Source of the DNA: a virus | Lineage: Duplodnaviria > Heunggongvirae > Uroviricota > Caudoviricetes | Direction: 5' to 3' (one strand) | IMG/VR virus record: IMGVR_UViG_2541047722_000008 | Coordinates: 1-14,654 of that record | Length of the DNA: 14,654 bases | Shown: piece by piece, positions 1 to 14,654 of the stretch | Layout of the letters: every line of letters starts with the position of its first letter | Position numbering within the stretch: the first letter of the stretch is position 1 | Made by a program: the position numbers and the translations under genes | The notes under the pieces: model-generated | What the model saw: only the letters and a program-made list of their open reading frames with translations | The model's database searches: none | Told to the model about the DNA's origin: nothing

Positions 1-1119
1 TCAAATAACCAACTTAACCCATTCCTGACCTCGAGTATCGTTATAGCGATCGGTGGTTGCCTGGACTTTATGTCCTAGTAATGTTTTTGTATCGATACCC
101 TGTGCACGGTACAGCCGTTCTGATAGAGAGCGTTGTTCATGAAATGTTGGCGGAGTTTTTCCTGCTGGTGGAATTATCCCAGCCAGATCCCGTGCTTTGG
201 CAAAGTAGTCGCTCAGGTTGTCTTTACTCATCGGCTTCGGTTGTTTCTGGTGCCGACTATGGATTAGATATGGACTTAATATTCTGTCTCGGCACCCATC
301 AATAACTTCTTTTAACGTTATCCCAATGGCATCACAGCGTAGTGTAAGCGGTAACGCCAGACGCATTCCGGTTTTTCCCTGGGTGATATGCAAGTGTTCG
401 TTCCACACATCTGAAAAACGCATGTGGCAAATGTCATCACGGCGCTGACCAGTAACAATCGCAAGAAGCATTGCGTTACGGATAAAGTGTTTTTCAGGCG
501 TTGCATTGTAAATTTTTTGCCAGTCTTCCATGGTGAGCCTGGCTCTGGTTACTTTAGGGATCGGTTTACGGGTAGCCTCCGGAGGATTCCATCCAGGAGG
601 AACTTCCCCTGCATGCTGTGCTTCTTTATAAATATCAACCCATAATCCACGATTTACTCTCGCTGTGCTGACCATGTCTTTATCCAGCCACTCATCCAGT
701 ATTAATGCAAAGTCTCTTACTTCCAGTTCTTTCAATGGGTGGTTTCCCAGACGGGAAACCAGGTATGCAGCCATTCGGGTTTTTTCTTTGTGAGTTGTAG
801 CTGCAATATCTCCATTTTTCAGTCGCGTGTCCTGTATTTTCAGATATCGATCAACCCATGCCTTTAATCTGATACCCCGACGTTTTGTTGCTGACGGACT
901 TTCATCAATTTTGCGCATGAAATATTCAGCTTCTGCTGCAGCTATTCGCTGATTGGCTGTGGAAGCGATTTTTTCTGCCTTACCTTTGTCTGTTCCGAGT
1001 CCGTGAAATTTTCCAGTCACAGGATTTTTATACTGGTAGTAAACTCTGCCAGTTCTGCGATCAAACTTTTCGTAAAGACCGGCTACGTCAGTGCTGTTTT
1101 TTCGTGGCCTCGGTGACAT
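1..1119 (-). CDS. int: Tyrosine site-specific integrase (lambda Int family)
   Basis: 372-aa ORF, ATG at 1119-1117, stop at 3-1. The C-terminal half carries the tyrosine-recombinase pattern (…GQRRDD…, …HSRHQ…, …LLGHK…, …TDRY). It sits at the prophage end next to an excisionase-like gene. Confidence 0.9.
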   Translation of the reverse strand: MSPRPRKNSTDVAGLYEKFDRRTGRVYYQYKNPVTGKFHGLGTDKGKAEKIASTANQRIAAAEAEYFMRKIDESPSATKRRGIRLKAWVDRYLKIQDTRLKNGDIAATTHKEKTRMAAYLVSRLGNHPLKELEVRDFALILDEWLDKDMVSTARVNRGLWVDIYKEAQHAGEVPPGWNPPEATRKPIPKVTRARLTMEDWQKIYNATPEKHFIRNAMLLAIVTGQRRDDICHMRFSDVWNEHLHITQGKTGMRLALPLTLRCDAIGITLKEVIDGCRDRILSPYLIHSRHQKQPKPMSKDNLSDYFAKARDLAGIIPPAGKTPPTFHEQRSLSERLYRAQGIDTKTLLGHKVQATTDRYNDTRGQEWVKLVI

Positions 1120-1357
1120 GAGTTAAAATCTCCTTCAGTGCATCATCATCGCCAGTATGAATTTCCGGCGCAATTCCCGTTTCACCAGGCCCAACAAATA
1201 CTGCTCGGCGATCTATCAGCCAACGCCCACGAATTTTTTGTGGTCTTGGAACGATGTATCCTAGTTTTCCGTATTTCACCAGGGTAGTGTTTGTTATTGG
1301 GAGACTGAACCGTTTTGGTTTCCACTCGTCGAGCGTTATCAGGTACTGTTCGCTCAT
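1088..1357 (-). CDS. Excisionase-like small DNA-binding protein
   Basis: 89 aa from ATG 1357 (GGAG 8 nt upstream); the six-frame track extends it to a GTG at 1366. Immediately upstream of int with a 32-bp overlap, as in lambdoid xis-int pairs. Function assigned by position and size only. Confidence 0.55.
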   Translation of the reverse strand: MSEQYLITLDEWKPKRFSLPITNTTLVKYGKLGYIVPRPQKIRGRWLIDRRAVFVGPGETGIAPEIHTGDDDALKEILTHVTEATKKQH

Positions 1358-1418
1358 GGCTATCACTCCGGAACGCGCCAGTTGCAGAATATCAACGACA
1401 ACTGGCGACGGTTGAACA

Positions 1419-3860
1419 TTAAAAATCAGCCTGATTCGGGATCAGTTTTTGCCAGATAGCTGAAACGTATTTTGCCTGGTAACGAGCGTCATCAAGTGCA
1501 TTATGGCGCTCACCTTCGAATGGGATAGCAGTTCTGGCATCGAAGTCTATGGCTTTCCCCAGCTCAACGATTGTGCGTACATCGCGATCGTTGTAGTAAC
1601 GCCACGGGCAGGGGATCCCCTGCCGTTCGTATGAACGGCGCAAAATCGTGTTGTCGAAGTTGGCTCCATTTCCCCAGACCTGAACAAAAAATTCACCGGA
1701 GTTTTCGTCGATAAATTCCCGCAATTGTAACAGTGCATCATCTAACGGGATTTCATCGGTCATAATGGCAGATTGCGCTTCGCGTGATTGCTTAAGCCAC
1801 CATTTAATGGTGTCCCGATCAATGACTCCGCCAGCAGTTTCCAGATCGATAGTCTTACTAAATTCCGGTCCCATATCTCCGGTTTGCGGATCGAAAAATA
1901 TTGCACCTATTGAGATGATCGGGGCATCAGGATTTTTTCCCATGGTTTCAAGGTCGATCATTAGATGGTCACACGTCCTGCTGGTGGATGTGATTTCGTG
2001 ATGACCGTTCACCTTAATTGAGTGATCTGCCGTCTCGCCAGTTTTATTATCGCTGGCGTGATGCTGATTGCCGCCAGGGTTCTCCTTGTGTGGATGTTCA
2101 GCGCCTTCCATTTCCTCCGGATCATTTTCCTGAACTTCAACCTGATTCTCTTCATCGAATGTTTCCTGGTATGTTGCGTCGCCCATCACCGCGCCACAAT
2201 CAGGGCAGTTGCCGCCGCCGGTCTGACCGCAGGCGGTGCAGACTTTTTCCGGTTCCTGTTGCGCTACTGATTCGGATTGTTTCGTTTCTGGCTCGTTTTG
2301 TAACGCATTTGGGCTGTTTTGTTCCGCTTTTTGGTCGTTCCGTTCCGATTCATGCTGGTTCTGGTTCACAGAATCGCGAGTCTGGATCCCCTTGACCCAT
2401 TTCGGATCATTAGGGTCGCTAATCCCCTCAACAAATTCACCACGCGATACAGCAAGTAACTTATCGGCGTCAGGCTGGCTGATATTGGCTGCCTGCATAA
2501 TTTTGTTTACTTCGTCAGCGGTGACTTTTACTTGGTTAGCGGAACTCACCTGCGACTGAGCATCCAGCGACTGCGCGTTCTGGCCATGTTCAGTTGTATC
2601 CGGTTCCATTGTTTCAGTTGTTGCCTGTTCACCTGCCATTGCGTCAGATGGTTGTGGTTTTTCTTCTTCTGTTTCACGCTCAGTAACCACCTCGCGGTTA
2701 ATTTCTTCCAGGATATCTTTTTCCGGCGTATGCCGGGCAGCTGTGAGAGTTTCCTTGCTGGGGTTCTCGTGATCAGTTTCCGTCAAATAGGCGTTGATAT
2801 ACCCCTGAAGGCGTCCCGGGTAGTGATAAAATTCAGGGTGTGCGCTTCGGATAAGTGCAAAAATAGCGGCGCGGGAATAGTCCAGAATACCCGGGGTTGC
2901 ACGAAGTGCTGCGGACCATTCTTTGAACGGACTTTCTTTGTTCAGGACTACTTCTTTTGCGCGACGATAAACGCTGCCCGGAATTTCATAAATATTAAAA
3001 TCCATCGGAAGTGTGGCTGCTGCAATCTCCACATCCAGTGTGTCGAGGGTGTGTACTAAATTCGGATTGCGATCGGTTTTGTTCCCACCGCCAGCATTAG
3101 CACCGGAAGCCGTGCGGGTGATGCGTGAAACACGATTTCCTTTCATCCACTCTTTTGTCAGCAGACCCCGATCAGTGTAGTCAGCGTCCAGGTATGCTTC
3201 GAAAAAAGCAGTTATTAGTCCCAGGTCTGAATTACCAGGATTAGGGAAAACTTTGTCAGTGTCACGAACCAGTTTGTGGAGGTCGCGAATCTCCAGCGAG
3301 TCGAGCAGACTGGTTTTATGCGAAATAGCCAGGGCAGTAACAGCCGGTAGTTCTTCAGCCCGTGCAATGTGTAATGCCTGGAGTTCGTCGCGTGAAACGT
3401 GCGTTACTGGTTTTTCGCTGCCGTGTTGAGCAAGCCAACGAATGGGCAGTTCCTGACCGGAGACAGGCAGAAGCATGCTCTCCTCAATCTCAGTCATGTC
3501 TTCGCCGTTGATGTTGGTATTGTCAGTGCTGGCTGGTTTGTCCTGAACAGAGGGGGAAGGGCCGATAAATGTCATTGTGATGCCATCTTTCCCGCCTTTT
3601 TCATAGCGGTTGCAGAATTCAGTATCAAACACGCCTTCTGGCGGAAGGTCGTCAACAACGGGCAAATTGACGCGGACGGGTTTTTTAAAGTCGTCTTCAT
3701 CATAATCGTTGTCATCCATTGCGGTAATGCAGCGGGAGATTGCAACAGATAATTTTTTTGCTGTAGTCCAGTAAAAACCACCTTTAATTCCCAGGCGTTT
3801 TCTTACTTTGTCATTTTTTGCTTCGCAATATAGTGCAAATTCTTCTTTATCAGTGCTCAT
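1419..3860 (-). CDS. Large exonuclease: RecE-like (exodeoxyribonuclease VIII family) N-terminal region, acidic Q/E/N-rich linker, Cys4 zinc-ribbon motif, C-terminal DEDDh (DnaQ-like) 3'-5' exonuclease domain
   Basis: 813-aa ORF. The C-terminal ~180 aa (coords ~1422-1961) carries DEDDh motifs: MIDLETMG (Exo I), VWGNGANFD (Exo II), HNALDDA (Exo III). CTACGQ…CPDCG lies at ~2196-2243. The N-terminal ~300 aa resemble my recollection of the Rac RecE N-terminal region (…[39 protein letters not shown]…). Confidence 0.85.
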
Positions 3861-3953
3861 TATTGGTAAACCTCATCACAGATTTAAGGGTGAACAAATC
3901 TCTGCCATTGCTGACATATAAGAATGAAACTGGATATTTATTACGGTGCTGTT

Positions 3954-4145
3954 TTAAAATCCTGCCGGGATTTCGTTATTATCCTGGTGAATAACTTTAT
4001 CGACCGGGTAACAGTTACCGGGAATTTTCTGTTCGGTTGCTGCAGTCACACACTCCTGCATTGTCCTGTGAACACTGACTGCAATATCAACTGGCTCTCC
4101 GGAAACAAGAAAAAATGTCAGAACAAGTGCAAATGCTGTATTCAT
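3954..4145 (-). CDS. ydfD: YdfD-like small membrane (lysis-type) protein
   Basis: 63 aa from ATG 4145, which overlaps the upstream TGA (ATGA coupling); AGGA sits 8 nt upstream. N-terminal hydrophobic segment MNTAFALVLTFFLVSG. Position right after dicB matches Qin ydfD (63 aa). The track's longer version starts at 4199. Confidence 0.6.
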   Translation of the reverse strand: MNTAFALVLTFFLVSGEPVDIAVSVHRTMQECVTAATEQKIPGNCYPVDKVIHQDNNEIPAGF

Positions 4146-4330
4146 TGCCAGCATCCTTTTTGTATCGGACGTAAACGGGCCAGCATTGAAAGAATGCATA
4201 TTTTATTTAATAACTCCCGTTCGTGTTTTCTCTTGTTAATGGCATCTTCAGTAAATACAGGGTTACTGATAGTGACACCAATTTCAAAACAACCTTCAGA
4301 CGTATTAACGTTTGGTAATAACGTTTCCAT
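4142..4330 (-). CDS. dicB: DicB-like cell-division inhibitor
   Basis: 62 aa (METLLPNVNTSEGCFEIGVTISNPVFTEDAINKRK…), ATG 4330 with GAGGA 7 nt upstream. Same length as, and near-identical to, my recollection of E. coli DicB; located downstream of DicF as in Qin. Confidence 0.75.
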   Translation of the reverse strand: METLLPNVNTSEGCFEIGVTISNPVFTEDAINKRKHERELLNKICILSMLARLRPIQKGCWQ

Positions 4331-4499
4331 TATCGCGTCCTCAACAATGAATTTTGTGATGCAGTGCCTGGTGCCTCCAGGTGACGTTAACCAGTTAACA
4401 ATTAACGCCGGATACAGAGAATCCACCCATAACACTGTTTTTGGTTTTAACTGTTCCGCGTGCGCTTAGCCGCATTCACCGCATCACAAAATTCACTTT

Positions 4500-4557
4500 A
4501 AAAAGGGCGGCAGAGCAGTCACGGAGTAAAACTGATACCGCCAAACGTCACCAGAAA
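4500..4557 (-). ncRNA. dicF: DicF small RNA (ftsZ-targeting sRNA processed from the dicB operon transcript)
   Basis: Minus strand reads TTTCTGGTGACGTTTGGCGGTATCAGTTTTACTCCGTGACTGCTCTGCCGCCCTTTTT, matching the DicF sequence as I recall it, including the 3' GC stem (GGCGG/CCGCC) plus U-run. It lies between the ydfC-like and dicB-like genes as in Qin. Confidence 0.75.
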
Positions 4558-4898
4558 ATTGATAACAGAGGGCGTTGCAGCGGGGTTGTCACTTAAGCGT
4601 ATGGTCAACCTGACAACCCGGTGTCCTCAACGGGGGAAGGAATAACCCCGCCATACTTACCGCCGCGCCATTTCGCGGATTGCCACAACCGGAAGCGCAC
4701 GGTCGACGAAAATTTAACGACAGGCTATCTATGAACCAGCTACCTCGCCGTGCGCTTTCGCGTTATGGTCTGACTTTTCAGGGAAATATCCTTTCAGTAA
4801 ACTGTCAGTGCCGGATGCTCACCCGTGTCCGGCGCACGCACTCCACCTCACCCGTGGAGAACTCCTTAATTACCAACCTTAGCTTCGTTGGTTAGCTA

Positions 4899-5117
4899 TT
4901 AACGCGGGTATGTAATCATTCTGGCAATGCTTAATGCCGCTGCTTTTTCCAGATTGGTGATATCCTGCTCCAGAGCGGACAGATTTTCAGCCTGCTTAGC
5001 CCTGGCTTCATTAGCCCATTTCAGATCCTGCGCTGCATTAATTTTCTGGCGCATCCACTCATAAAGTTCATCATCGGTATAGTCTGGCGCGATGATGACG
5101 GGTTCTCGTTTCTGCAT
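4899..5117 (-). CDS. ydfC: YdfC-like small protein of the dicB operon
   Basis: 72 aa, ATG 5117 with AAGGAG 5 nt upstream. Same length and operon position as Qin YdfC; no motif recognised. Confidence 0.55.
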   Translation of the reverse strand: MQKREPVIIAPDYTDDELYEWMRQKINAAQDLKWANEARAKQAENLSALEQDITNLEKAAALSIARMITYPR

Positions 5118-5209
5118 GTCGGCTCCTTGTGGTTAGCGTTGCCTGCTTTTAACCACGTCAGGCGAGGTGGTATCCTCTGAGGGGTCTGTTACTCGAGAGG
5201 AAATTGGTT

Positions 5210-5410
5210 ATGAATACAATCAAGTTTTCTTGCCCAGAATGTGGTGGCGAAGTCTTTGACACATCCTTTAAGCCGCAGGGCTCTGACAGTTTCGCGGGAG
5301 CCATCTGCAAAAATTGTGGTCACCTTGTAACTGAAGATGAGTCCTCGCAGTTCGATGACGAAATCGTTGACAATATCTTCGGTGCACTCACCAGAGACTT
5401 TCTGAAATAA
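5210..5410 (+). CDS. Small zinc-ribbon protein (CxxC-N19-CxxC) with acidic C-terminal tail
   Basis: 66 aa: MNTIKFSCPECGG…CKNCGH…DESSQFDDEIVDN. ATG 5210 with GAGG 9 nt upstream; codons look typical for E. coli; a strong hairpin follows the stop. It conflicts with the antisense ORF 5189..5545, so this is not certain. Confidence 0.5.
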   Translation: MNTIKFSCPECGGEVFDTSFKPQGSDSFAGAICKNCGHLVTEDESSQFDDEIVDNIFGALTRDFLK

Positions 5411-5456
5411 AGACGCATACCGCTTAGTTACCGCTCTGATAACTCTTACCTGTCCG

Positions 5457-5500
5457 GCAATGGCGCTGATGTCAATATAAAGCGCCATTGCTGCTTCTTT
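5457..5500 (+). terminator. Hairpin (11-bp perfect stem GCAATGGCGCT/AGCGCCATTGC, 13-nt loop) followed by a T-rich stretch; putative terminator for the zinc-ribbon gene
   Basis: Perfect inverted repeat 5457-5467 / 5481-5491, then TGCTTCTTTG. The U-tract is weak, so factor-independent termination is uncertain. Confidence 0.35.
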
Positions 5501-5619
5501 GCCGATCCCGTGATGCCTTCCATTCTGATGTTTGACTTCGCCCACTGAGAAATCCTCTGTTTCCCCTTAACGCCGGGGTAGCGGAACTGTTTGCTGAGAA
5601 CACCGTGCGGTGTCTTGAT

Positions 5620-5680
5620 GAATAAAATTTAGAATAACCTAAGATATGTGGTCAAGATTTTTATGTAGAAAAACCTAAGT
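5620..5680 (-). promoter_or_regulatory. Candidate repressor-controlled leftward promoter (PdicB / pL analogue) with CTTAGGTT operator half-sites
   Basis: Minus strand: -35 TTGACC (5655-5650), 18-bp spacer, -10 TAAATT (5631-5626). The 8-mer AACCTAAG (= CTTAGGTT on the minus strand) occurs at 5636-5643 and 5672-5679, the same motif found at the divergent promoter on the other side of the repressor gene. Confidence 0.4.
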
Positions 5681-5753
5681 TTTTTGATGTGAAAAACACA
5701 AGTGTTTGAAAGTTTGTGCTTTTTATTACAGGGTGTGGAGAAAAAAGGGAGGG

Positions 5754-6161
5754 TTATTTGTTTGCGCTTCTTTTGCGAGCTTTGAGTAGTTCTTCAAAAA
5801 GTTTGTTGAAATTTTCAACTCGAGCACGCATCTCTGACAACAGGGCCTTTTGCTCTGACTCAGGCAGTGCGTCGAACAGTTGAAGTAACTCTTTTTGATC
5901 TTCTGTCAGAAGGGCTGGCTGATTATCCGGGATCGGTTCGCCTGGTTGTTTATCTTCATCCCCAAAAAGAAGCCAAGTCGGTGAGCACTGAAGCGCTTGG
6001 CTCAGTGCGAATAATCTTTTCCCCGCCGGCTGTGTTTCATCTCTTTCCCATTGAGAAATTGTTACGTGAGCCACTTTGACCAGCTTACCTAATGCGGCCT
6101 GAGACAGTTTTAATTTTTTACGCCTATGTAAGAGGCGAGCACCGAAGGTTTCGTTTTTCAT
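5754..6161 (-). CDS. dicA: DicA-like prophage repressor (XRE-family HTH; no LexA-like peptidase domain)
   Basis: 135 aa with an N-terminal HTH (…LKLSQAALGKLVKVAHVTISQWERDETQP…) and the C-terminal segment …LFALSQALQCSPTWLLFGDEDKQP…MRARVENFNKLFEELLKARKR, closely matching my recollection of E. coli DicA (135 aa). No Ala-Gly/Ser-Lys autocleavage module. Confidence 0.85.
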   Translation of the reverse strand: MKNETFGARLLHRRKKLKLSQAALGKLVKVAHVTISQWERDETQPAGKRLFALSQALQCSPTWLLFGDEDKQPGEPIPDNQPALLTEDQKELLQLFDALPESEQKALLSEMRARVENFNKLFEELLKARKRSANK

Positions 6162-6237
6162 ATTAGGGAATTCTAATTTTTCTTGACTTAGGTTTCTCTA
6201 CGATCTAGTTTCCTTAGGAAAATCTAAGGAGCTCGAT
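6162..6237. promoter_or_regulatory. Divergent promoter/operator region between the repressor and the cro-like gene
   Basis: Plus strand: -35 TTGACT (6183-6188), 17-bp spacer, -10 TAGTTT (6206-6211), AAGGAG (6226-6231) 6 nt before ATG 6238. CTTAGGTT at 6187-6194 overlaps the -35; further copies CCTTAGG (6212-6218) and CTAAGG (6224-6229). On the minus strand a TAGAAT (6175-6170) lies ~8 nt before the repressor ATG, suggesting a leaderless PRM-like transcript. Confidence 0.5.
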
Positions 6238-6465
6238 ATGTTGAAAATTGATGCTATAGCGTTTTTTGGCAGCAAAACAAAGCTTGCCAATGCCGCAGGA
6301 GTTAGGCTGGCAAGCATTGCTGCATGGGGGGAACTGGTTCCTGAAGGTCGCGCGATGCGCCTGCAAGAGGCATCCGGCGGGGAACTTCAGTACGACCCCA
6401 AAGTTTATGATGAATATCGTAAGGCAAAGCGGGCGGGGCGGTTGAACAATGAAAATCACCCCTGA
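6238..6465 (+). CDS. dicC: DicC/YdaS-family Cro-like regulator
   Basis: 75 aa (MLKIDAIAFFGSKTKLANAAGVRLASIAAWGELVPEGRAMRLQEASGGELQYDPKVY…), divergent from the repressor, strong SD. Matches my recollection of DicC/YdaS-family proteins. Confidence 0.8.
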   Translation: MLKIDAIAFFGSKTKLANAAGVRLASIAAWGELVPEGRAMRLQEASGGELQYDPKVYDEYRKAKRAGRLNNENHP

Positions 6466-7000
6466 ACAGGTTTGTGAGGCTCTGGATGCCTGGGTATGCC
6501 GACCAGGAATGACACAGGAGCAGGCGACGATATTAATCACGGAAGCGTTCTGGGCTCTGGAAGAACGCCCGAACATCGATGTTCAACGTGTCACGTTTGA
6601 TGATGGTGTGGTTGATCAACGGGCGCTGGGCGTTAACCGGGTGAAGATATTCGAACGCTGGAAAGCTATCGACACCAGGGATAAGCGGGAAAAATTCACG
6701 GCGCTGATTCCGGCAATTATGGAGGCTATCCGGATCAGTGATTTCAGGTTGTATTGTGAAATTACTGACGGAAAAAGCATTACGTACATGATCGCCAGGT
6801 TAAACAAAGAATATGGCGATGTGGTGGAGTCCGGACTGCTTTTTGCAGATCCTGCTGTTGTGGAACGTGAGACTGACGAGCTTATAGAAAAAGCTATTGC
6901 TTTCAAGCATGCGTATCGTCAGCAATACCAACATTACTTTGCAGATAAACAAATATCTGTCTGGGGTTCGTATGAGTATCGATGCACTACGATGGGCTAA
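6449..7000 (+). CDS. YdaT-like protein (proposed CII-like regulator / putative toxin of the YdaS-YdaT pair)
   Basis: 183 aa, overlapping the end of dicC by 17 bp. The N-terminus (MKITPEQVCEALDAW…) and its position directly after the Cro-like gene match the YdaT family as I recall it; assignment is by synteny and general resemblance. Confidence 0.6.
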   Translation: MKITPEQVCEALDAWVCRPGMTQEQATILITEAFWALEERPNIDVQRVTFDDGVVDQRALGVNRVKIFERWKAIDTRDKREKFTALIPAIMEAIRISDFRLYCEITDGKSITYMIARLNKEYGDVVESGLLFADPAVVERETDELIEKAIAFKHAYRQQYQHYFADKQISVWGSYEYRCTTMG

Positions 7001-8012
7001 AAAGGTGAAAACCGGCAGTTCATCCAGTAAGTCAGTATTAACCTGGCTTGCTGATATGTGCGGTGCCGATTTGTGTGCATACCCGTCTGTATCTGCACTG
7101 GCAGAAGTAACGGAACTGAACAAAAAGACTGTGCAGGACAGCTTACGACACCTGATGGAGATTGGGTTAATTGTTGATACCGGTGAGAGAAAAGGCCGAA
7201 CAAAGCAGATCGTAGTGTACCGACTTATCGGTGTTGAAGAAAGTGTTACCGAGGCTGAATACACCCAAAAATGGGAGTCTTTAAAGGTGGGTAAAATTGG
7301 TACTGTTAATAAAAACAGTACCGAAAATGGCTATGTTTCAGCACAAAACAGACCCAAAAACGGAACTCTTAGCTGCATGGAAAATAACCAAAGACACCCA
7401 AATTTTCCATCAAAGACACCCAAAAATGGATCACGGAACCCAAAGGAACCCAAAGATCTAAACCCCACACATAACACACGCGAGAGTGCTCCGACCAGTG
7501 AGCAGGAAGTTTTGTCGTTACAGGCAGCACCCCCTGTATTCCTGGATGGCCTGAGCGAACCCATCGGAAAATTTCCGATGACCGATAGCTGGTATCCGTC
7601 ACGGGATTTTCGACGACGGGCTGCGTTGTGGGGGATGGCTTTGCCGGAGACAGAATTTACACCTGCTGAACTTGCCGCCTTCCGGGACTACTGGACAGCG
7701 GAGGGGAAAGTGTTTACGCAGATTCAGTGGGAGCAGAAATTCGCCCGTCACGTAAATCACGTCAGGGCGCAGGTTAAACCAGTCAGCAAGGGGGTAAACC
7801 ATGCAGCAGCACCAGGTGGCACCGCATCACGGGCAGTTCAGGAAATTCGGGCAGCACGTGAGCAGTGGGAACGTGAAAACGGATTTATCAGCGACGGAAA
7901 CGGCCTGGAAGCTGTGGGAGCTCATGGGGGAGGTTTATTCGAACCGCTGGACCCAGAAGAATGGGGCCGCACCTTCGAAGCTCTGGATTGCACAGATTGG
8001 CGCGATGACTGA
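6972..8012 (+). CDS. Replication initiator, O-like: N-terminal winged-helix DNA-binding domain plus C-terminal DnaT-like domain
   Basis: In-frame ATG 6972 (MSIDALRWAKK…) preceded by GGGG. N-terminal HTH (…SVSALAEVTELNKKTVQDSLRHLMEIGLIV…); C-terminal region (…FTPAELAAFRDYWTAEG…) resembles the DnaT C-terminal domain. The ORF has good E. coli-like codon usage up to its stop at 8012, overlapping the next gene by 212 bp. The track's start at 6897 is inside the previous gene. Confidence 0.7.
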   Translation: MSIDALRWAKKVKTGSSSSKSVLTWLADMCGADLCAYPSVSALAEVTELNKKTVQDSLRHLMEIGLIVDTGERKGRTKQIVVYRLIGVEESVTEAEYTQKWESLKVGKIGTVNKNSTENGYVSAQNRPKNGTLSCMENNQRHPNFPSKTPKNGSRNPKEPKDLNPTHNTRESAPTSEQEVLSLQAAPPVFLDGLSEPIGKFPMTDSWYPSRDFRRRAALWGMALPETEFTPAELAAFRDYWTAEGKVFTQIQWEQKFARHVNHVRAQVKPVSKGVNHAAAPGGTASRAVQEIRAAREQWERENGFISDGNGLEAVGAHGGGLFEPLDPEEWGRTFEALDCTDWRDD

Positions 8013-8466
8013 GCAGCAAATCCGACAGGTCTGCCGCCAGTGCATGGACCGCTGCCGGGCGGGTGAAACATGGCCTCCGGACCTGGCTGAGTTTGTGGCA
8101 CTGATTTCGGAAAGCGGAGCCAATCCATTCGGTCTGACGGTGGATGCCGTGATGGAGGAGTACCGTCGCTGGCGCAACGAGTCCTGGCGATACGACGGGA
8201 GCGATAAATACCCGTGGTCTCAGCCTGTGCTGTATCACATTTGCCTCGAGATGCGTTCAAAGGGGATTGAGCGGCAGATGACCGAAGGGGAGTTAAAACG
8301 GCTTGCAGAACGGCAGCTGACGAAATGGGCAAAGCATGTTAGTAACGGCCTGAGCGTTCCGCCAGTCCGGCGACAACTGGCGGCCCCCAAACGTCCTGCG
8401 GGACCAACGCCAATTGAGTTGCTGAAACAGGAATATGAACGCCGGAAAGCGGCTGGGTTTGTCTGA
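7801..8466 (+). CDS. Lambda P-like replication protein (helicase loader family)
   Basis: 221 aa from ATG 7801 (AAGGGGG 6 nt upstream). Segments …PPDLAEFVAL…, …YPWSQPVLYHICLEMR…, …TEGELKRLAERQL… align with lambda P (…PSPGQFVAWC…, …YPWKSNAHYWLVTNLY…, …TDAELRRKAADEL…) as I recall it. An alternative start at ATG 8005 (ATGACTGA overlap with the O stop) would give 153 aa. Confidence 0.6.
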   Translation: MQQHQVAPHHGQFRKFGQHVSSGNVKTDLSATETAWKLWELMGEVYSNRWTQKNGAAPSKLWIAQIGAMTEQQIRQVCRQCMDRCRAGETWPPDLAEFVALISESGANPFGLTVDAVMEEYRRWRNESWRYDGSDKYPWSQPVLYHICLEMRSKGIERQMTEGELKRLAERQLTKWAKHVSNGLSVPPVRRQLAAPKRPAGPTPIELLKQEYERRKAAGFV

Positions 8467-8498
8467 TTTGAGAAGTAATTTTTACCGGGAGGAAATTT

Positions 8499-9269
8499 AT
8501 GGAGACTGTTTTTGACGCACTGAAAGCGATGGGAAAAGCCACGTCGGTAGAGCTGGCTGCGCGACTTGATATCAGTCGTGAAGAAGTGCTGAACGAGCTG
8601 TGGGAACTGAAAAAGGCTGGCTTCGTTGATAAAAGCGTATACACCTGGCGTGTGGCTGGCGAAGGTGAATCCGGGGTAGCCGAAGAGCAGCCAGCACAAT
8701 CTGAAGCACCGGATGTGCTAACCAGGGAGGTCGAACGAAAAGTTACCGCTGACATGATGATTGAGTTTATCGGTCAGGAGGGTGCTAAAACGAGTGAGGA
8801 ACTGGCGGGTAAGTTCGGTGTCAGCACTCGCAAGGTTGCTTCCACGCTGGCGGTAGTAACCGCAACGGGGCGGCTGGCACGCGTAAACCAGAACGGTAAA
8901 TTTCGCTACTGCATGCCGGGCGAGAATTTACCAGTAAAGCCGAAAGTCGCATCGGTAACGGAAAATGATGGTAAAGCCTTTCCTCAGCCAGCCGGCGTTG
9001 CGTTACCAGTACAGGAAGCTGCAACACAGGAAGATATTAAAACAGAAACTGTGGCGGACATTGTGCAGTCGTTGCCATCGTTCACCGAAACGCGAGCGGA
9101 TGACCTGATTTTACCATCGCTGCATATGGCAAACCGCGAACTGCGTCGGGCGAAAAATCATGTCCAGAAGTGGGAGCGTGTCTGCGCCGCGCTGCGGGAG
9201 TTGAACAAGCATCGGGATATTGTTCGACAGATTACTGATTTTTCCCGCCGTGTTGCATCGGAAAAGTGA
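8499..9269 (+). CDS. DUF1627-like prophage protein (two winged-helix-like repeats)
   Basis: 256 aa, GGGAGG 6 nt before ATG. Starts [41 protein letters not shown]… with a second similar repeat (…[33 protein letters not shown]…). Resembles a conserved family downstream of replication genes in E. coli lambdoid prophages. Confidence 0.65.
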
Positions 9270-9284
9270 TTGCCGGAGGCGCTT

Positions 9285-9689
9285 ATGGCAAAAGTATTTA
9301 CACAAGAAGAGCGGGAAAAAATTAAGGGGCAGATTGTTGAACTTGTACGTCTGAGCGGTCGCGAGACGTTACGGCAACTGGAAGCGAAAACAGGTGCGAC
9401 AAGATATCTGATGAGTGTTCTCGCCAGAGAGCTGGTTGCCAGTGGCGATGTATACAATTCTGGCTACGGGTTATTTCCGTCTGAACAGGCTCGTAAGGAC
9501 TGGCAAAACGCCCGCAAAAAACTATCGAGGGCAAAGGCGAAGAAACCGGTTGTGGTTGCTCCGGACCTTATCTGGTCATTACCAGACGGAGAAATACGCC
9601 GCTACGACAGGCGTCAGAACATGATTTGCCGTGAGTGCCGGGAAAGCGAAGTTATGCAGCGTATACTAACGTTCTATTGGGGAATATAG
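9285..9689 (+). CDS. Hypothetical protein (134 aa)
   Basis: ATG 9285 with GGAGG 5 nt upstream (the track's start at 9270 is a TTG). Contains a CRECRE motif near the C-terminus; no family recognised. Confidence 0.55.
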   Translation: MAKVFTQEEREKIKGQIVELVRLSGRETLRQLEAKTGATRYLMSVLARELVASGDVYNSGYGLFPSEQARKDWQNARKKLSRAKAKKPVVVAPDLIWSLPDGEIRRYDRRQNMICRECRESEVMQRILTFYWGI

Positions 9690-9704
9690 CCACTAAATAA
9701 GGTA

Positions 9705-10016
9705 ATGAACCAAATGAACACGGAAAAAGCGAAAACGCAGCTCAGGATAATGCTTGCCGGTCCGGCTGCGAGTTATACGACACATTCACCAGCCATAAAA
9801 AAGGTTCTTGATGAACTGGAAGCCAAAGACAAGCGCATTGCAGAACTGGAGGCAAGGGAAGTCCAGCTACCGGCTGGCTATGAACTTCGATATGGACACC
9901 CGATAAATGCTGATGAGCGCCATGTCATGATACCTAAGGAAAATGGCAGCTGGATTTATCTGGCTGATTTAGAGCGCGCACTACGTGTTGCTGGCATTCG
10001 CATCAAAGGAGAGTGA
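9705..10016 (+). CDS. Hypothetical protein, possibly ead/Ea22-like (103 aa)
   Basis: Central coiled-coil-like segment (VLDELEAKDKRIAELEAREVQL); closely spaced with its neighbours. Family assignment is tentative. Confidence 0.5.
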   Translation: MNQMNTEKAKTQLRIMLAGPAASYTTHSPAIKKVLDELEAKDKRIAELEAREVQLPAGYELRYGHPINADERHVMIPKENGSWIYLADLERALRVAGIRIKGE

Positions 10017-10017
10017 C

Positions 10018-10374
10018 GTGGAAATAAAACCAGAAGATGAGTTAAGTAATATTGTTTTATTTCCGGTAAAAGAAGATGACCCACGTAATCAGGTTAATTT
10101 TCTTTATGAGCCATCGGAAAGACCATATTGCCATCACGCTTCTGTCCGGGTTGATGAAAAAGAGCGTCAGGTCCGCTGTAAAATCTGCGGTGCAGTTGTG
10201 GAGCCGTTTGACTGGATGCTCTCTGTGGCGAAAAGAGAAACCAGACTGGCAGATGATGTAAGGCTATTGCGTCAGGAGGAACGGGAAAGGCGGAAAAATA
10301 TAGAAAAGCTAATTCAGATTGAGCGTAACGCAAAAGCGCGGATACGCAGAGCGACAAAATCCAGAACTGAATAA
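10018..10374 (+). CDS. Hypothetical zinc-finger protein with basic coiled-coil tail (118 aa)
   Basis: GTG 10018 with AGGAG 6 nt upstream, one nt after the previous stop. Motif C-HH…C-KIC-G (YCHHASVRVDEKERQVRCKICG) and an R/K/E-rich C-terminus. Confidence 0.5.
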   Translation: MEIKPEDELSNIVLFPVKEDDPRNQVNFLYEPSERPYCHHASVRVDEKERQVRCKICGAVVEPFDWMLSVAKRETRLADDVRLLRQEERERRKNIEKLIQIERNAKARIRRATKSRTE

Positions 10375-10469
10375 TTAAATTTAGCACTGTTAAAAATTTA
10401 ATCCTTAACCGGAGGGATTTCTGTACCCTCAGAACATCAGGAGGCCGCCTGAAAGGGCAGTAATGAAAA

Positions 10470-11021
10470 ATGACTGAATTAACAAAAGAGCAATTAATCG
10501 AAGAAGCTAAATTTAAAATAGCGATTGCGAAATGCCACCCTAATTCAGAGATGGCACGGGTAGAGGGTGAGTTATTCAAAATTGCACTGGCATCGCTGGA
10601 AGCGGAGCCTGTTGGTGAATTTTATGAGTATAAGCCGGGCGGCTGGTATCAGCATTCGGCTGGAGATAAAGCGCCAAAGTGGATACAACTCTACGCTGTG
10701 CCGCCAGCGCTCGCAGCACCTGAAGGACTGGTTAAAGCAGTGCGCTTTTATGAACAGGTAAAGCGTGAGAATCCACCAGTCGAAACAGGAGCATGGAAAG
10801 ATGCTGTTGATTGGGTACTCAAAGAGGCCTGCTGTGCTGTCATTCTGGGTAAAGCCGACAATCCATTAGCATCCAGTAACCAAGTTGGCGAATTAACAAT
10901 GTGGGTTAAACGACTGGTCAGTCAACTGAAAAAAGCTAATCCAGACTGCAAATTACCGGAGAAGGCGATGGACTACCTGAAGCGGAACGAACTGATAAGC
11001 GCGGAGGATGTTTTGCGATGA
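10470..11021 (+). CDS. Hypothetical protein (183 aa)
   Basis: Long ORF with E. coli-like codon usage, in the same orientation as its neighbours; weak SD; no motif recognised. Confidence 0.55.
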   Translation: MTELTKEQLIEEAKFKIAIAKCHPNSEMARVEGELFKIALASLEAEPVGEFYEYKPGGWYQHSAGDKAPKWIQLYAVPPALAAPEGLVKAVRFYEQVKRENPPVETGAWKDAVDWVLKEACCAVILGKADNPLASSNQVGELTMWVKRLVSQLKKANPDCKLPEKAMDYLKRNELISAEDVLR

Positions 11022-11134
11022 CCTGGCCTGAAGCATTCACAACGGTAGGAATTGCAATGGCGGTGGCGCTGGTGGTGTATTCGATTTGCCGCTGGGGGGA
11101 AGGTATTAAAAAACGCCCCGCACACAGACGTTGA
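11018..11134 (+). CDS. Small single-pass membrane peptide (38 aa), translationally coupled to the upstream gene
   Basis: ATG 11018 overlaps the upstream stop (ATGA). Peptide MTWPEAFTTVGIAMAVALVVYSICRWGEGIKKRPAHRR: hydrophobic helix plus basic tail. Below the length cut-off of the ORF track. Confidence 0.35.
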   Translation: MTWPEAFTTVGIAMAVALVVYSICRWGEGIKKRPAHRR

Positions 11135-11262
11135 GCGCCTGAGATGTGGGGATAGGGAGTTAGTTAAATAGTTGTACAACAATACCTGATTTTATATTGA
11201 AGCAAGAAATAGGTTGCTACATATTGAATCATGCGTGTGTACGTCAAATATGGGAGGTCATC

Positions 11263-11352
11263 GTGCTGGTTCTGAAATGTGCGCTGGCTATTGCGGCAGT
11301 AATGGCAATTTATTGTCTTGTTATCGTTCTTATGAATCACCTCTCTGATTGA
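11263..11352 (+). CDS. Candidate small hydrophobic peptide (29 aa)
   Basis: GTG 11263 with GGGAGG 5 nt upstream. Peptide (V/M)LVLKCALAIAAVMAIYCLVIVLMNHLSD is almost entirely hydrophobic. Ends at the hok promoter -35. Expression unproven. Confidence 0.25.
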   Translation: MLVLKCALAIAAVMAIYCLVIVLMNHLSD

Positions 11353-11359
11353 TTTTATA

Positions 11360-11388
11360 TTGGCGAGGTGACGTGAGTTAAGTAGAAT
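11360..11388 (+). promoter_or_regulatory. Candidate hok mRNA promoter
   Basis: -35 TTGGCG (11360-11365), 17-bp spacer, -10 TAGAAT (11383-11388). The downstream leader (…GCTTGAGGCTATCTGCC…GGCAGATAGAGAAAAGCCCC…) resembles the folded 5' region of R1 hok mRNA as I recall it. Confidence 0.4.
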
Positions 11389-11449
11389 TGCTGCGGGTGC
11401 TTGAGGCTATCTGCCTCGGGCATGAACACCAACGGCAGATAGAGAAAAG

Positions 11450-11520
11450 CCCCAGTTAACATTACGCGTCCTGCAAGACGCTTAACATTAATCTGAGGCT
11501 CAATCCATGCTGAACACATG
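11450..11520 (-). ncRNA. sok: Candidate Sok antisense RNA (approximate boundaries)
   Basis: Minus-strand promoter-like elements: -35 TTGCCT (11550-11545), 17-bp spacer, -10 TAACCT (11527-11522), antisense to the mok SD/start region as in hok/sok loci. A GCGTC/GACGC hairpin and U-rich stretch lie at ~11440-11480. Ends not determined. Confidence 0.35.
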
Positions 11521-11719
11521 TAGGTTAGCCTCTTACGTGCCGAAAGGCAAGGAGAAGCAGGCTATGAAGCAGCAAAAGGCGATGCTAATCGCCCTGATCG
11601 TCATCTGTTTAACCGTCATAGTGACGGCACTGGTAACGAGGAAAGACCTCTGCGAGGTACGAATCCGAACCGGCCAGACGGAGGTCGCTGTCTTCACAGC
11701 TTACGAACCTGAGGAGTAA
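11507..11719 (+). CDS. mok: Mok (modulator of killing) reading frame: N-terminal extension in frame with hok
   Basis: ATG 11507 with GAGG 8 nt upstream; MLNTCRLASYVPKGKEKQA then reads into hok, as I recall for chromosomal mokC/hokC. Confidence 0.55.
   Translation: MLNTCRLASYVPKGKEKQAMKQQKAMLIALIVICLTVIVTALVTRKDLCEVRIRTGQTEVAVFTAYEPEE
11564..11719 (+). CDS. hok: Hok/Gef-family type I toxin
   Basis: 51 aa MKQQKAMLIALIVICLTVIVTALVTRKDLCEVRIRTGQTEVAVFTAYEPEE: the Hok/Gef signature (TM helix, then TRKDLCEV.IRTGQTEVAVF.AYE). AAGGAG 9 nt upstream. Confidence 0.9.
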   Translation: MKQQKAMLIALIVICLTVIVTALVTRKDLCEVRIRTGQTEVAVFTAYEPEE

Positions 11720-11788
11720 GAGACCAGGCGGGGGAGAAATCCCTCGCCACCTCTGATGAGTCAGGCATCCTCAATGCACCCACACTTA

Positions 11789-11820
11789 ACCCGCTTCGGC
11801 GGGTTTTTGTTTTTATTTTC
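11789..11820 (+). terminator. Rho-independent terminator downstream of hok
   Basis: ACCCGC-TTCG-GCGGGT hairpin followed by TTTTTGTTTTTATTTT. Confidence 0.65.
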
Positions 11821-11939
11821 AACGCGTTTGAAGTTTTGGATGGTGCCGGAATAGAATCAAAAATACTTAAGTAGCGCGCAGGGAGAAGAGGGATGGACCC
11901 CGAACAGGGGAGTGCTATTTATCTGGAAGGATTCTGTTG

Positions 11940-12197
11940 ATGAAAATCGAAGAATTACGTGAAATTTTTAGTGAAGATGGCCTCTATACTGTGCGCGTTG
12001 AGAATGGCGCTATTGTCAGCCACTGCCGTATTAAATGTTTACAGTCTCAACAAAGGAAGAGTGGAGCTGCGTTAATTCATTTTGTGGATGGGCTTGTGAC
12101 GGATGGTTTTATTTTGCGTGCAAATGAATTTGTCACATCGTTGCCGTCTCTGAAAAAAGCTGGGATTAAGGCTGGTTTTTCTGCTTTTGAAGATTAG
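11940..12197 (+). CDS. Hypothetical small protein (85 aa), possibly Rem-like by position
   Basis: ATG 11940 (the track starts 3 nt earlier at a TTG), GGAAGGA upstream. Located between hok and the DUF968 gene, where Qin carries rem; no motif recognised. Confidence 0.45.
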   Translation: MKIEELREIFSEDGLYTVRVENGAIVSHCRIKCLQSQQRKSGAALIHFVDGLVTDGFILRANEFVTSLPSLKKAGIKAGFSAFED

Positions 12198-12266
12198 TGA
12201 ATTCATCTACAATTCAGCGCAGGGCTGAACCCCTGTTGAGTAACACTGTGCCACCGGAGAAAGCCG

Positions 12267-12545
12267 ATGGCGCAAAATTCCAGACTACACAATTCTGATA
12301 ATTCAGCCGTCTTTGTCAGCAGGCACGGGCGGCGTTCTCACACATTCAAATATGACTGGTACCAGCATGACCCCTGCACTGAAGAACAGGCCGAATGGCT
12401 GATTCAGAACTACCGCAGACGTGGGTATGTGTTTAGGAAAGCCCTCACCCTCGATTATCGTCTCTGGATAATCTCCGTCAGGCTCCCTTATTCCGAACGC
12501 CCGCCGCGTCCGTCCCGCACATTCCAGCAACGCATCTGGAGGTAA
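12267..12545 (+). CDS. Hypothetical protein (92 aa)
   Basis: ATG 12267 with GGAGA 6 nt upstream; its stop is one nt before the next gene's start. No motif recognised. Confidence 0.5.
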   Translation: MAQNSRLHNSDNSAVFVSRHGRRSHTFKYDWYQHDPCTEEQAEWLIQNYRRRGYVFRKALTLDYRLWIISVRLPYSERPPRPSRTFQQRIWR

Positions 12546-12546
12546 C

Positions 12547-13602
12547 GTGCGGGTATTGCTTCGACCTGTTCCTGTACCGGAACTTGGGCTGGTGGTCCTT
12601 AAGCCTGGCCGTGAATCCATGCAGGTATTTCATAACCCTCGAGTGCTGGTGGAGCCGGAACCGAAAAGCATGCGTAATCTGCCGTCCGGGGTCGTTCCTG
12701 CCGCTCGCCAGCCGCTGGTGGAAGACAAAACATTGCTGCCGTTTTTCAGTAACGCACGGGTGATTCGTGCTGCTGGTGGTGCTGGTGCATTGTCTGACTG
12801 GCTGTTGCGCCATATTAAATCCTGCCAGTGGCCACACGGCGATTATCATCACAGCGAAACCGTCATTCACTGTTATGGTACCGGCGCAATGGTGTTGTGC
12901 TGGCACTGCGACAACCAGCTGCGTGACCAGACATCCGAATCACTCGAGCAACTTGCTCATCAAAACCTGTCAGCATGGATGATTGACGTCATCGGTCACG
13001 CAATAAGCGGTACGCAGGAGCGTGAATTATCTTTGGCTGAATTATCCTGGTGGGCGGTCCGCAATCAGGTGGCGGACGCGCTACCGGAAGCGGTATTACG
13101 TCGTTCGCTGGGGTTGCGTGCGGAAAAAATCCGCTCAATGTACCGTGAAAGCGATATCGTACCGGGAGAGCAGACCGCCACCAGCATACTGAAGCAGCGC
13201 ACAAAAAATCTTGCGCCGCTGCCTCACGCCCACCAGCAAAACCCGCCACAGGAAAAGACGGTGGTCAGCATTGCCGTTGATCCGGAGTCACCGGCTCAGT
13301 ATCTCCAGCGCCAGAAACCACAACGGGAAGAGATGCCTGTATACACGCGCTGGGTAAAAACGCAGAAATGCATGACGTGCGGTAATCAGGCAGATGATCC
13401 GCATCACATCATTGGTCATGGACTGGGAGGGATGGGAACAAAGGCTGATGATTTGTTTGTTATTCCGCTGTGCCGTAAATGTCATAACGAACTGCACGCC
13501 GGGGTAAAAGATTTTGAAGAAAAACACGGCAGCCAGCTGTTGTTGCTGATTCGTTTTTTAATGCACGCGAGAAATTCGGGTGTCCTGAAGTGGAAAGCAT
13601 GA
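12547..13602 (+). CDS. DUF968-family protein with C-terminal HNH/His-Me-finger-like motif (YdfU-like)
   Basis: 351 aa, GTG 12547 with GGAGG upstream. C-terminal motif …CMTCGNQADDPHHIIGHGLGGMGTKADDLFVIPLCRKCHNELHAG… (Cys pairs flanking HH…H…N…H). Position before rusA/Q matches Qin ydfU (~349 aa). Confidence 0.7.
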   Translation: MRVLLRPVPVPELGLVVLKPGRESMQVFHNPRVLVEPEPKSMRNLPSGVVPAARQPLVEDKTLLPFFSNARVIRAAGGAGALSDWLLRHIKSCQWPHGDYHHSETVIHCYGTGAMVLCWHCDNQLRDQTSESLEQLAHQNLSAWMIDVIGHAISGTQERELSLAELSWWAVRNQVADALPEAVLRRSLGLRAEKIRSMYRESDIVPGEQTATSILKQRTKNLAPLPHAHQQNPPQEKTVVSIAVDPESPAQYLQRQKPQREEMPVYTRWVKTQKCMTCGNQADDPHHIIGHGLGGMGTKADDLFVIPLCRKCHNELHAGVKDFEEKHGSQLLLLIRFLMHARNSGVLKWKA

Positions 13603-13968
13603 ATGACTGAACGCATAGAATTTGTTTTGCCTTACCCGCCGACGGTGAATACCTACTGGCGACGTCATGGCAATACGTATTTCATCTCGGAGGCCGGAAA
13701 GCGTTATCGCCGTGATGTGGCGCTAATTGTTCGCCAGCAGCGGCTGAAATTAAACCTGTCCGGAAGGCTGGCGATAAAGATTATTGCAGAGCCACCGGAT
13801 AAGCGCCGTCGTGACTTGGACAATATCCTGAAGGCACCACTGGATGCGCTGACGCATGCCGGACTACTTATAGACGACGAGCAGTTTGATGAAATCAATA
13901 TTGTGCGCGGTCAGCTCGTTCCTGGTGGGCGGCTGGGGATAAAAATCACAGAACTGGAGTGCGCATGA
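13603..13968 (+). CDS. rusA: RusA Holliday-junction resolvase
   Basis: 121 aa with the RusA hallmarks (…LPYPPTVNTYWRRH…, …PDKRRRDLDNILKAPLDALT…, …GGRLGIKITEL…). Start immediately follows the upstream stop. Confidence 0.9.
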   Translation: MTERIEFVLPYPPTVNTYWRRHGNTYFISEAGKRYRRDVALIVRQQRLKLNLSGRLAIKIIAEPPDKRRRDLDNILKAPLDALTHAGLLIDDEQFDEINIVRGQLVPGGRLGIKITELECA

Positions 13969-14654
13969 ATAACCAGTATTTACAGTTTGTGCGTGAGCAG
14001 CTCATTATCGCCACCGCTGATTTGAGTGGGGCAACAAAAGGTCAGCTTGAAGCCTGGCAAGAGAATGCCATGTTCGATACAGGGCGTTACAGGCGAAAAA
14101 AAATCCGGTACCGCGATGAAGTGACTGGAAAAATGATAACGCGGGATAATCCACCAATCCCGGGAAAGCAATCGCTGGCGAAGGGGACGTCAATACCTCT
14201 GGTCAGTCCGGTTGAGTTTTCGACATCATCGTGGCGGCGGGCTGTTCTGTCTCTTGAAGAACATCATAAAGCCTGGTTGTTGTGGTGTTACAGCGGGAGT
14301 ATTTGTTGGGAATATCAGATCGCGATAACACAGTGGGCGTGGAATGAATTTAATACTCAATCCGGTACCAGAAAAATTGCAGGGAAAACGCAGGAACGCC
14401 TGAAAAAATTAATCTGGCTGGCGGCGCAGGCAGTAAAAGCAGAACTTTTTGGTGGGGAAAGTTATGAATACCAGGAGCTGGCATTACTGGCGGGAGTGAC
14501 AACTAAAAACTGGTCCAAAACATTTACTCGTCACTGGGTTGCAATGAAACACATTTTTCACCGACTTGATAGTGAGGCTTTATTGTTTGTAATGAGAACA
14601 CGTTCAAAACAAAAGGCGGCATTTTCAAAGCAAAGTGTTGCAAAAGTAGATTGA
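13965..14654 (+). CDS. Q-like late-gene antitermination protein (assigned mainly by position after rusA)
   Basis: 229 aa, ATG 13965 overlapping the rusA stop (ATGA), GGAG 5 nt upstream; stop at the window end. rusA followed by Q is the conserved lambdoid order; I did not recognise a specific Q-family motif. Confidence 0.6.
   Translation: MNNQYLQFVREQLIIATADLSGATKGQLEAWQENAMFDTGRYRRKKIRYRDEVTGKMITRDNPPIPGKQSLAKGTSIPLVSPVEFSTSSWRRAVLSLEEHHKAWLLWCYSGSICWEYQIAITQWAWNEFNTQSGTRKIAGKTQERLKKLIWLAAQAVKAELFGGESYEYQELALLAGVTTKNWSKTFTRHWVAMKHIFHRLDSEALLFVMRTRSKQKAAFSKQSVAKVD

Follow-up and report, generated by a model that had tools for sequence, protein, structure and literature searches.

The window analysed here is a stretch of 14,654 nucleotides (nt) of a virus of the Caudoviricetes (IMG/VR record IMGVR_UViG_2541047722_000008, positions 1 to 14,654), and it comprises the early region of a lambdoid prophage together with its left arm. 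Close to its right end, four genes are arranged on the plus strand in the order 92-aa gene, ydfU, rusA, and Q, coding for a small protein of 92 amino acids (aa), a 351-aa protein of the YdfU family (DUF968), a RusA Holliday-junction resolvase, and an antiterminator. The 92-aa open reading frame (ORF) is a genuine protein gene under purifying selection, and its product is a basic small alpha/beta protein, the Escherichia form of a wider family of about 66 aa. Genes of this family consistently lead the nuclease module of the nin region, and the small gene most likely codes neither for a YdfU-specific subunit nor for an immunity protein. The region would be the last early-gene block of the prophage, a counterpart of lambda's nin region and a coupled module in which YdfU is a predicted nuclease and the small protein its putative accessory; taken as a whole, this explanation is given a slightly better than even chance.

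The genes of the block are tightly joined. The small ORF extends from ATG at 12267 to TAA at 12543–12545, followed by a single C at 12546 and the GTG of ydfU at 12547. The one-nt distance and tight coupling had been noted in the first-pass annotation of this DNA, and the GGAGG embedded in the end of the small gene agrees with them. The ATG of rusA abuts the stop codon of ydfU with no gap, and the start of Q overlaps the stop of rusA as ATGA at 13965. With the junctions TAA-C-GTG, TGA-ATG, and ATGA, the four genes therefore form one translationally coupled chain. RusA was recognized in Pfam with 59.1 bits (cut-off 22.8), and the nuclease-rich cluster with RusA just before Q that had been proposed earlier is indeed present. 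The block is an ordinary recombination cluster of Escherichia coli prophages.

For comparison, 85 related loci from IMG/VR prophages, K-12 Qin, and several phages were assembled, with 53 distinct DNA versions of the small gene. In all 53 versions, 90–92 codons are open and end with TAA, and the GTG of ydfU follows one base (C or T) after this stop. Pairwise ratios of nonsynonymous to synonymous substitution rates (dN/dS) were 0.20 in the gene's own frame versus 0.95–2.6 in the remaining two sense frames; the antisense frame sharing its wobble positions gave 0.27, yet contains 6.3 stop codons on average. Third codon positions are the most variable, with summed column entropies of 14, 18, and 39 for codon positions 1, 2, and 3 in the whole gene, 1.3, 4.0, and 14.4 in its last third, and 8.9, 7.9, and 10.4 in its first 30 codons. 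A GGAGA context upstream of the small gene's start was found in about 30 of the 53 versions, and GCAGAGA in the remainder. At the other end, the junction TGGAGG-TAA-N-GTG is conserved in the family, and in front of RusA, NinG, or YbcO it is TGGAGG or TGGGGG followed by TGA. An antisense 105-aa ORF was excluded as a real gene by its dN/dS and its breakage in most versions (Table 1).

DNA of the small gene is present in 4529 of 5426 complete E. coli genomes (83%), in up to 8 copies. The Qin prophage of K-12 MG1655 carries an intact 92-aa homologue on the minus strand of NC_000913.3 (about 1644306–1644584; 3307–3585 in locus L004), one base upstream of ydfU. The gene is absent from the MG1655 annotation, as nothing is marked between ydfU and rem in the RefSeq record, and a hypothetical protein is annotated there in the W3110 record. 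On the strand opposite to the small gene, a "mobile element protein" that overlaps the gene or lies upstream of it is given in two phage records. In one (L002), it is located at 2978–3136 (minus) and covers the 5' end of the small gene, which is unannotated; in the other (L165), it is at 1318–1431 (minus), just upstream, and the small gene at 1423–1701 (plus) is named "toxin to Rem". This label is an unreferenced pipeline name for which a literature search gave no source.

The small protein had no match in Pfam, NCBIfam, or PADLOC. Its residues 27–92 match all 66 positions of the profile phrog_1212, to which no function is assigned (E-value 4.5e-36). HMMER, run exhaustively against 1.8 billion representative proteins (E-values up to 0.001), found 72 representatives of the family, about half of which are 65–70 aa long and align to residues 27–92. 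Homologues in other genera are 35–45% identical, with equal length and hydrophobic pattern. The relatives from outside Escherichia start at the equivalent of residue 27, and the Escherichia form therefore carries an N-terminal extension of 26 residues. In the AlphaFold2 (AF2) model, the predicted local distance difference test score (pLDDT) is below 50 for residues 1–23 and about 87 for residues 30–70. Y49 and W91 do not vary within the family, and the consensus of its tail is LP-x5-PRPxRxYQQRIW-R/G. The isoelectric point of the protein in the window is 10.6, and the family median is 9.7. In the phage collection, its members come from temperate phages of Enterobacterales, with hosts in Escherichia, Klebsiella, Salmonella, Citrobacter, Cronobacter, Erwinia, Hafnia, Yersinia, and Edwardsiella. 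NinE, PdcA, and proteins in the NinF position were tried as relatives of the family and gave no match. The end of the tail, [YFW]-Q-Q-[RK]-[IMVL]-W-[RG] (residues 86–92, window positions 12522–12542), looks like a short docking motif and may be akin to Qxx[LIM][FW], the motif for sliding-clamp binding in bacteria.

The gene following the small gene was compared among loci; those of the Escherichia type were counted where 2 kb or more of sequence was available downstream. YdfU begins one base after the small-gene stop in 72 of these 73 loci, with RusA next in 69, and the only exception (L042) has a truncated ydfU. In 70 other loci, the small gene is directly followed by RusA and then YdfU (48), RusA alone (9), NinG/Rap (6), YbcO/DUF1364 (3), YdfU (2), or none of these (2). 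A nuclease gene directly follows in 140 of 143 loci. When the small proteins were clustered at 80% identity, 12 of the 13 clusters had YdfU, RusA, NinG/Rap, or YbcO within a few bases of the stop. The remaining cluster is represented by Yersinia phage PY54 (L158, about 2501–2698), where the small gene has an RdgC-like gene on one side and a 175-aa gene of no recognised family on the other. Individual arrangements include gp51, HNH (YbcO), RusA, YlcG, and Q in mEp237; SPN3UB_0061, NinG, and Q in SPN3UB; phiES15_017, a YbcO-like gene, RusA, and Q in phiES15; and the small gene, DUF1364, and Q in a Klebsiella phage. All five species-representative genomes of Citrobacter and Klebsiella have the small gene followed by RusA and YdfU or by YdfU. 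In Klebsiella and Citrobacter prophages (L090, 2501–4100; L166, L168–L170), the order is small gene, RusA, YdfU, and Q; the two nuclease genes are swapped compared with the window, and the small gene is still the first.

YdfU is not bound to the small gene in return. No member of the small family was found near the YdfU homologues of SfV (orf45), Klebsiella ST147-VIM1phi7.2, Yersinia YeP1, Vibrio H20, and P1 (PdcB), and in the phage collection a YdfU homologue is present in 175 records and the small family in 57. Within Escherichia, identity of the small protein showed no covariation with that of YdfU (r = 0.15); in 18 pairs of loci, small-protein cores 95% or more identical go with YdfU versions less than 70% identical (62–69%). 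The obligate co-occurrence and co-variation expected of a nuclease–immunity or toxin–antitoxin pair were not seen in these comparisons. Given the varied downstream nucleases and the YdfU genes standing without it, the small gene therefore leads a nuclease module and does not code for a dedicated YdfU subunit. The first-pass annotation had proposed the 92-aa protein as the partner of the 351-aa protein, a reading that these data weaken, and had asked whether the two are conserved as a unit; they are within Escherichia, but elsewhere the small family precedes RusA, NinG, or YbcO.

The 351-aa protein was recognized in Pfam as DUF968 (PF06147) with 216 bits (cut-off 27.8, E-value 4.5e-64) at residues 160–343, with a weaker match to HNHc_6 (E-value 1.4e-7), and over its whole length it belongs to phrog_96, "HNH endonuclease" (E-value 5e-164). 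The homologues of SfV, Vibrio H20, and P1 also match DUF968. The GTG start is backed by conservation in the family from M1-R2 onwards and by a dN/dS of 2.6 upstream in the same frame. On the same grounds, longer starts overlapping the small gene (362- and 375-aa database versions) were rejected. Database entries of 411 and 449 aa (set of P0121, P0123, and P0130) contain internal tandem duplications and are probably assembly artefacts. Fusions were uninformative as evidence of interaction, as P0121 and P0123 are such duplications and P0280 is a frameshift read-through.

The C-terminal cluster of YdfU reads C275-x2-C278, D283-D284-P-H286-H287, D302, and C309-x2-C312-H313-x3-H317. In an alignment of family members from E. 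coli, Shigella, Klebsiella, Yersinia, Vibrio, and P1, C275, H286, and D302 are invariant, and C278, H287, C309, H313, and H317 are nearly invariant. The histidine dyad (HH or DH) at the end of the first strand, which holds the catalytic His, is present, with H287 aligned to the invariant H32 of YbcO and to HH of McrA. Also present are the metal-binding His of the helix and the flanking zinc site (C275, C278, C309, C312, H313, and H317). In a single-sequence phmmer search, the motif aligned weakly with YbcO (PDB 3g27) and McrA (E-values of about 0.4–0.9), and profile searches of PDB with YdfU gave no match. When the families were aligned in hhalign, YdfU and YbcO matched with an E-value of 5.4e-5 and a probability of 66%, pairing H287 with H32, D302 with D47, C309 with C54, C312 with C57, and H313 with H58. 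The earlier reading of this cluster as HNH (His-Me finger) type is thus borne out by DUF968, HNHc_6, the YbcO alignment, and the literature (PMC5714182). Judging by homology to YbcO (3g27) and published work (PMC5714182, PMC4999995), YdfU would adopt a beta-beta-alpha-metal fold. Jablonska et al. 2017 (PMC5714182) placed DUF968 and DUF1364 (YdfU and YbcO) in group 7 of His-Me finger nucleases and noted RusA and Q as neighbours, and Kaur and Subramanian 2016 predicted a nuclease function for DUF1364. The nuclease family assignment and the RusA/Q neighbourhood are therefore not new, having been published in 2017.

Another Cys/His cluster is located in the N-terminal part of YdfU, and the types of its ligands are kept from E. 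coli to Vibrio and P1 (H or C at position 101, C or H at position 121). It is probably a second, structural zinc site, to judge from this conservation, and AF2 hints at a hairpin followed by a helix there (pLDDT about 55). The cluster locally resembles the LC-x2-C-[HD]-N-x-L of the C-terminal motif. An internal duplication of the HNH motif was considered and rejected, as the similarity was not significant by hmmsearch or hhalign. Residues 1–160 of YdfU match no Pfam family. An Orf/NinB-like domain was not found either, as neither the whole protein nor its fragments matched NinB/DUF1367 in Pfam (E-values up to 10), and a profile search of PDB gave no hit to lambda Orf.

On the explanation preferred here, YdfU would be a metal-dependent DNA endonuclease with a zinc-stabilised His-Me site at the C-terminus, a helical middle part, and a probable second zinc site in the N-terminal domain. 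It and RusA would most likely process branched DNA, that is, recombination or replication intermediates, during lytic growth, which is the task of Rap (NinG) in lambda and of YbcO with RusA in DLP12 and phage 82. Branched-DNA processing is suggested by where ydfU lies, at the close of the early operon, beside RusA and in the slot of Rap/NinG or YbcO; the unbroken His-Me motif and the RecE-type gene found elsewhere in this prophage point to it as well. The small protein would be translated first in the coupled chain, ahead of the nucleases and in step with them. Being basic, first in the chain, and kept before any branch nuclease, it is best guessed to be a DNA-binding or adaptor accessory; most likely it binds DNA or a partner within the branch-processing module and is not a YdfU-specific subunit or inhibitor. 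An extension of this, in which it is a common basic DNA-binding or adaptor accessory of YdfU, YbcO, NinG/Rap, and RusA in temperate phages of enterobacteria, is tentative and rather doubtful; the conserved C-terminal tail could then deliver the following nuclease to branched DNA or to a host factor.

Several points weigh against this explanation. The middle Asn of the HNH motif is replaced in YdfU by the invariant Asp D302, as by D47 in YbcO; in the test by alignment proposed in the first-pass annotation, the catalytic His (H286/H287) was thus kept and the Asn was not. Asp for Asn is a known variant at the family level (group 7), so membership in the His-Me superfamily is not excluded by it. 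The AF2 model of full-length YdfU has a mean pLDDT of 42, because the alignment supplied only two clades; it was unusable, no fold search was made on it, and the predicted beta-beta-alpha fold therefore rests on modest sequence homology. The literature yielded no experimental study of YdfU, YbcO, or the small protein. There is redundancy among the loci sampled, and two queries seeded the set. Any accessory role would be dispensable, since many YdfU homologues do without a small gene, and the adjacency could reflect only the conserved gene order of lambdoid phages.

That last possibility is the strongest of the alternatives. The small protein would then be unrelated in function to its neighbours, and coupling would set the expression level of the next gene. 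The downstream genes are of four different kinds, the upstream ones vary as well (rem, DUF1367, NinB-like, RdgC, and DinI-adjacent), mosaic recombination parts the small gene from particular YdfU alleles, and PY54 has a gene of no recognised family downstream. Yet in nearly all clusters a branch-nuclease gene begins a few bases past the stop whatever is upstream, the small gene is first even where YdfU and RusA are swapped, and its basic character fits a DNA-related role. A functionally unrelated neighbour is regarded as possible but not probable.

Alternatively, the small protein could be a safety catch, acting as an inhibitor, immunity, or antitoxin-like protein that neutralises YdfU until it is needed. 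Its gene stands in close coupling ahead of one for a nuclease that could be toxic, the pair is kept in all but one of the Escherichia loci, and the name "toxin to Rem" appears in two phage records, a sign at least that someone placed the gene among toxin–antitoxin systems. Such a role seems unlikely, as YdfU exists without the small gene in the five phages and elements named above, the small family also precedes RusA, NinG, and YbcO, which differ in fold and family, and nearly identical small proteins accompany divergent YdfU versions. Furthermore, the small family is basic, and nuclease inhibitors are typically acidic DNA mimics. None of the PADLOC defence-system models matched the 92-aa protein, YdfU, rem, or the 183-aa protein.

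YdfU itself could serve something other than recombination, either as a packaging-associated HNH protein, like the terminase-linked HNH of HK97-like phages, or as a weapon against foreign DNA. HNH domains have many roles (PMC5714182), and PdcB, its distant homologue in P1, is coded two genes upstream of pacA/pacB. However, pdcB is non-essential in P1 while pacA and pacB are essential (PMC10695390), lambdoid relatives hold YdfU in the nin position by RusA and Q, and Q, tRNA genes, and an IS element separate it from the terminase genes about 3.3 kb downstream. With no match to the defence-system models either, this is very unlikely. Finally, the view that the 92-aa ORF arose by chance, is a leader with an irrelevant peptide, or is the shadow of a real gene on the opposite strand (which bears an ORF of 105–150 aa) is scarcely credible and was rejected on dN/dS, third-position variation, intactness, homologues in other genera, and a confidently predicted core, in spite of its lack of a Pfam or NCBIfam family and of an MG1655 annotation.

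Among known systems, YdfU of K-12 Qin is 80% identical to that of the window over the full length, with a like domain layout and motif. It is also located upstream of Q and has the small gene one base upstream, but there is no RusA between YdfU and Q in Qin, and the zinc site, which is Cys4 with C312 in the window, has His at that position in K-12. YbcO of DLP12 and phage 82 (DUF1364, PDB 3g27) is homologous to the C-terminal 50 or so residues of YdfU and shares the Asp in place of Asn. Its gene is directly upstream of RusA and Q and is preceded by the small family in mEp237, phiES15, and the Klebsiella phage. It is only 96 aa long, essentially the finger alone, without the N-terminal part of about 270 residues of YdfU, and in DLP12 the small gene upstream of it is NinE, unrelated to the family described here.

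Lambda Rap (NinG), a branch-specific endonuclease with characterised biochemistry, occupies the same slot before Q and belongs to the His-Me superfamily (group 24, PMC5714182). NinG is preceded by the small family in SPN3UB and five other loci, but it represents another Pfam family (PF05766) and has no detectable similarity to YdfU. P1 PdcB is a full-length DUF968 member (26% identity over residues 32–347, Pfam E-value 3.6e-50), and its gene (L164, 1905–2948) lies just upstream of the late-gene activator lpa, paralleling YdfU before Q. Its motif is degenerate, with Gln at the position of H313 and an insertion after the His, and PdcA, coded upstream of it, has 66 aa, yet does not match the small family. 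In phages of Gram-positive bacteria (Listeria and Staphylococcus), DUF968/HNHc_6 proteins were described as an Orf-like domain fused to HNH (Curtis et al. 2014). These Orf/NinB–HNH fusions share with YdfU the Pfam family, the C-terminal zinc-finger HNH, and the neighbourhood of recombination genes, but their Orf-like N-terminal domain was not detected in YdfU.

YdfU-type genes and the small gene upstream are among the commonest genes of E. coli prophages, and the functions of both are predicted only. New here are the recognition of the 92-aa ORF as a real gene of a wider family, its omission from the K-12 MG1655 annotation, and the regular first place of that family in the nuclease module of the nin region, an arrangement that makes a YdfU-specific pair less likely. 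A fixed place before four different branch-processing nucleases offers a concrete hypothesis, cheap to pursue, of an accessory factor or regulator. The answer might clarify why lambdoid phages carry an HNH-type nuclease besides RusA, while the view of phage recombination would stay as it is unless an interaction is found.

The closest relatives of the window are "PPompW" prophages of E. coli O157, with 97% identity over 11400–14654. Besides the features listed in Table 1, the plus strand of the window carries cro, a YdaT-like gene, O- and P-like replication genes, DUF1627, and DUF977.

Table 1. Features of the 14,654-nt window, with positions counted from its first letter.
Feature	Position	Strand	Remarks
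Integrase	1–1119	minus	
813-aa protein	1419–3860	minus	Exonuclease VIII (RecE) region and C-terminal Rv2179c-like 3'-5' exoribonuclease domain
cI-like repressor	5754–6161	minus	
hok/sok type I toxin–antitoxin locus, complete	11395–11719		Rfam sok at 11395–11569, 113 bits; Pfam HOK_GEF; Hok of 51–70 aa
Strong terminator-like hairpin	11788–11805		3' of hok/sok
Promoter-like site	11828–11857		Ahead of rem
rem-like gene	11937–12197	plus	
Shine-Dalgarno-like GGAG	12256–12259	plus	7 nt before ATG of the 92-aa gene; read from sequence
92-aa small basic protein gene	12267–12545	plus	phrog_1212; intact in 53/53 variants; dN/dS 0.20
N-terminal extension of small protein	12267–12344	plus	Residues 1–26; Escherichia-specific, nearly unconstrained, predicted disordered
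Antisense 105-aa ORF, not a gene	12303–12620	minus	dN/dS 1.5; stops in 49/53 variants
66-aa core of small protein	12345–12542	plus	Residues 27–92; predicted strand-helix-strand-strand, then conserved tail ...PRPSRTFQQRIWR
GGAGG Shine-Dalgarno for ydfU	12538–12542	plus	Within the Trp-Arg codons closing the small gene
ydfU, 351-aa DUF968 protein, predicted His-Me finger (HNH-type) nuclease	12547–13602	plus	GTG start; TGA at 13600–13602
N-terminal Cys/His cluster of YdfU	12823–12924	plus	Residues 93–126; C93, H101, C118, C121; invariant D122, N123, R126
DUF968 region of YdfU	13024–13575	plus	Residues 160–343; Pfam
His-Me finger/zinc motif of YdfU	13369–13497	plus	C275 C278 ... H286 H287 ... D302 ... 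C309 C312 H313 ... H317
RusA Holliday-junction resolvase gene	13603–13968	plus	Pfam RusA, E-value 8.4e-16; phrog_34, E-value 4e-57
Antiterminator Q gene	13965–14654	plus	Runs past the window end; Pfam Phage_antiter_Q, E-value 6.8e-92

The 813-aa RecE-like protein represents a further nuclease within the same prophage.

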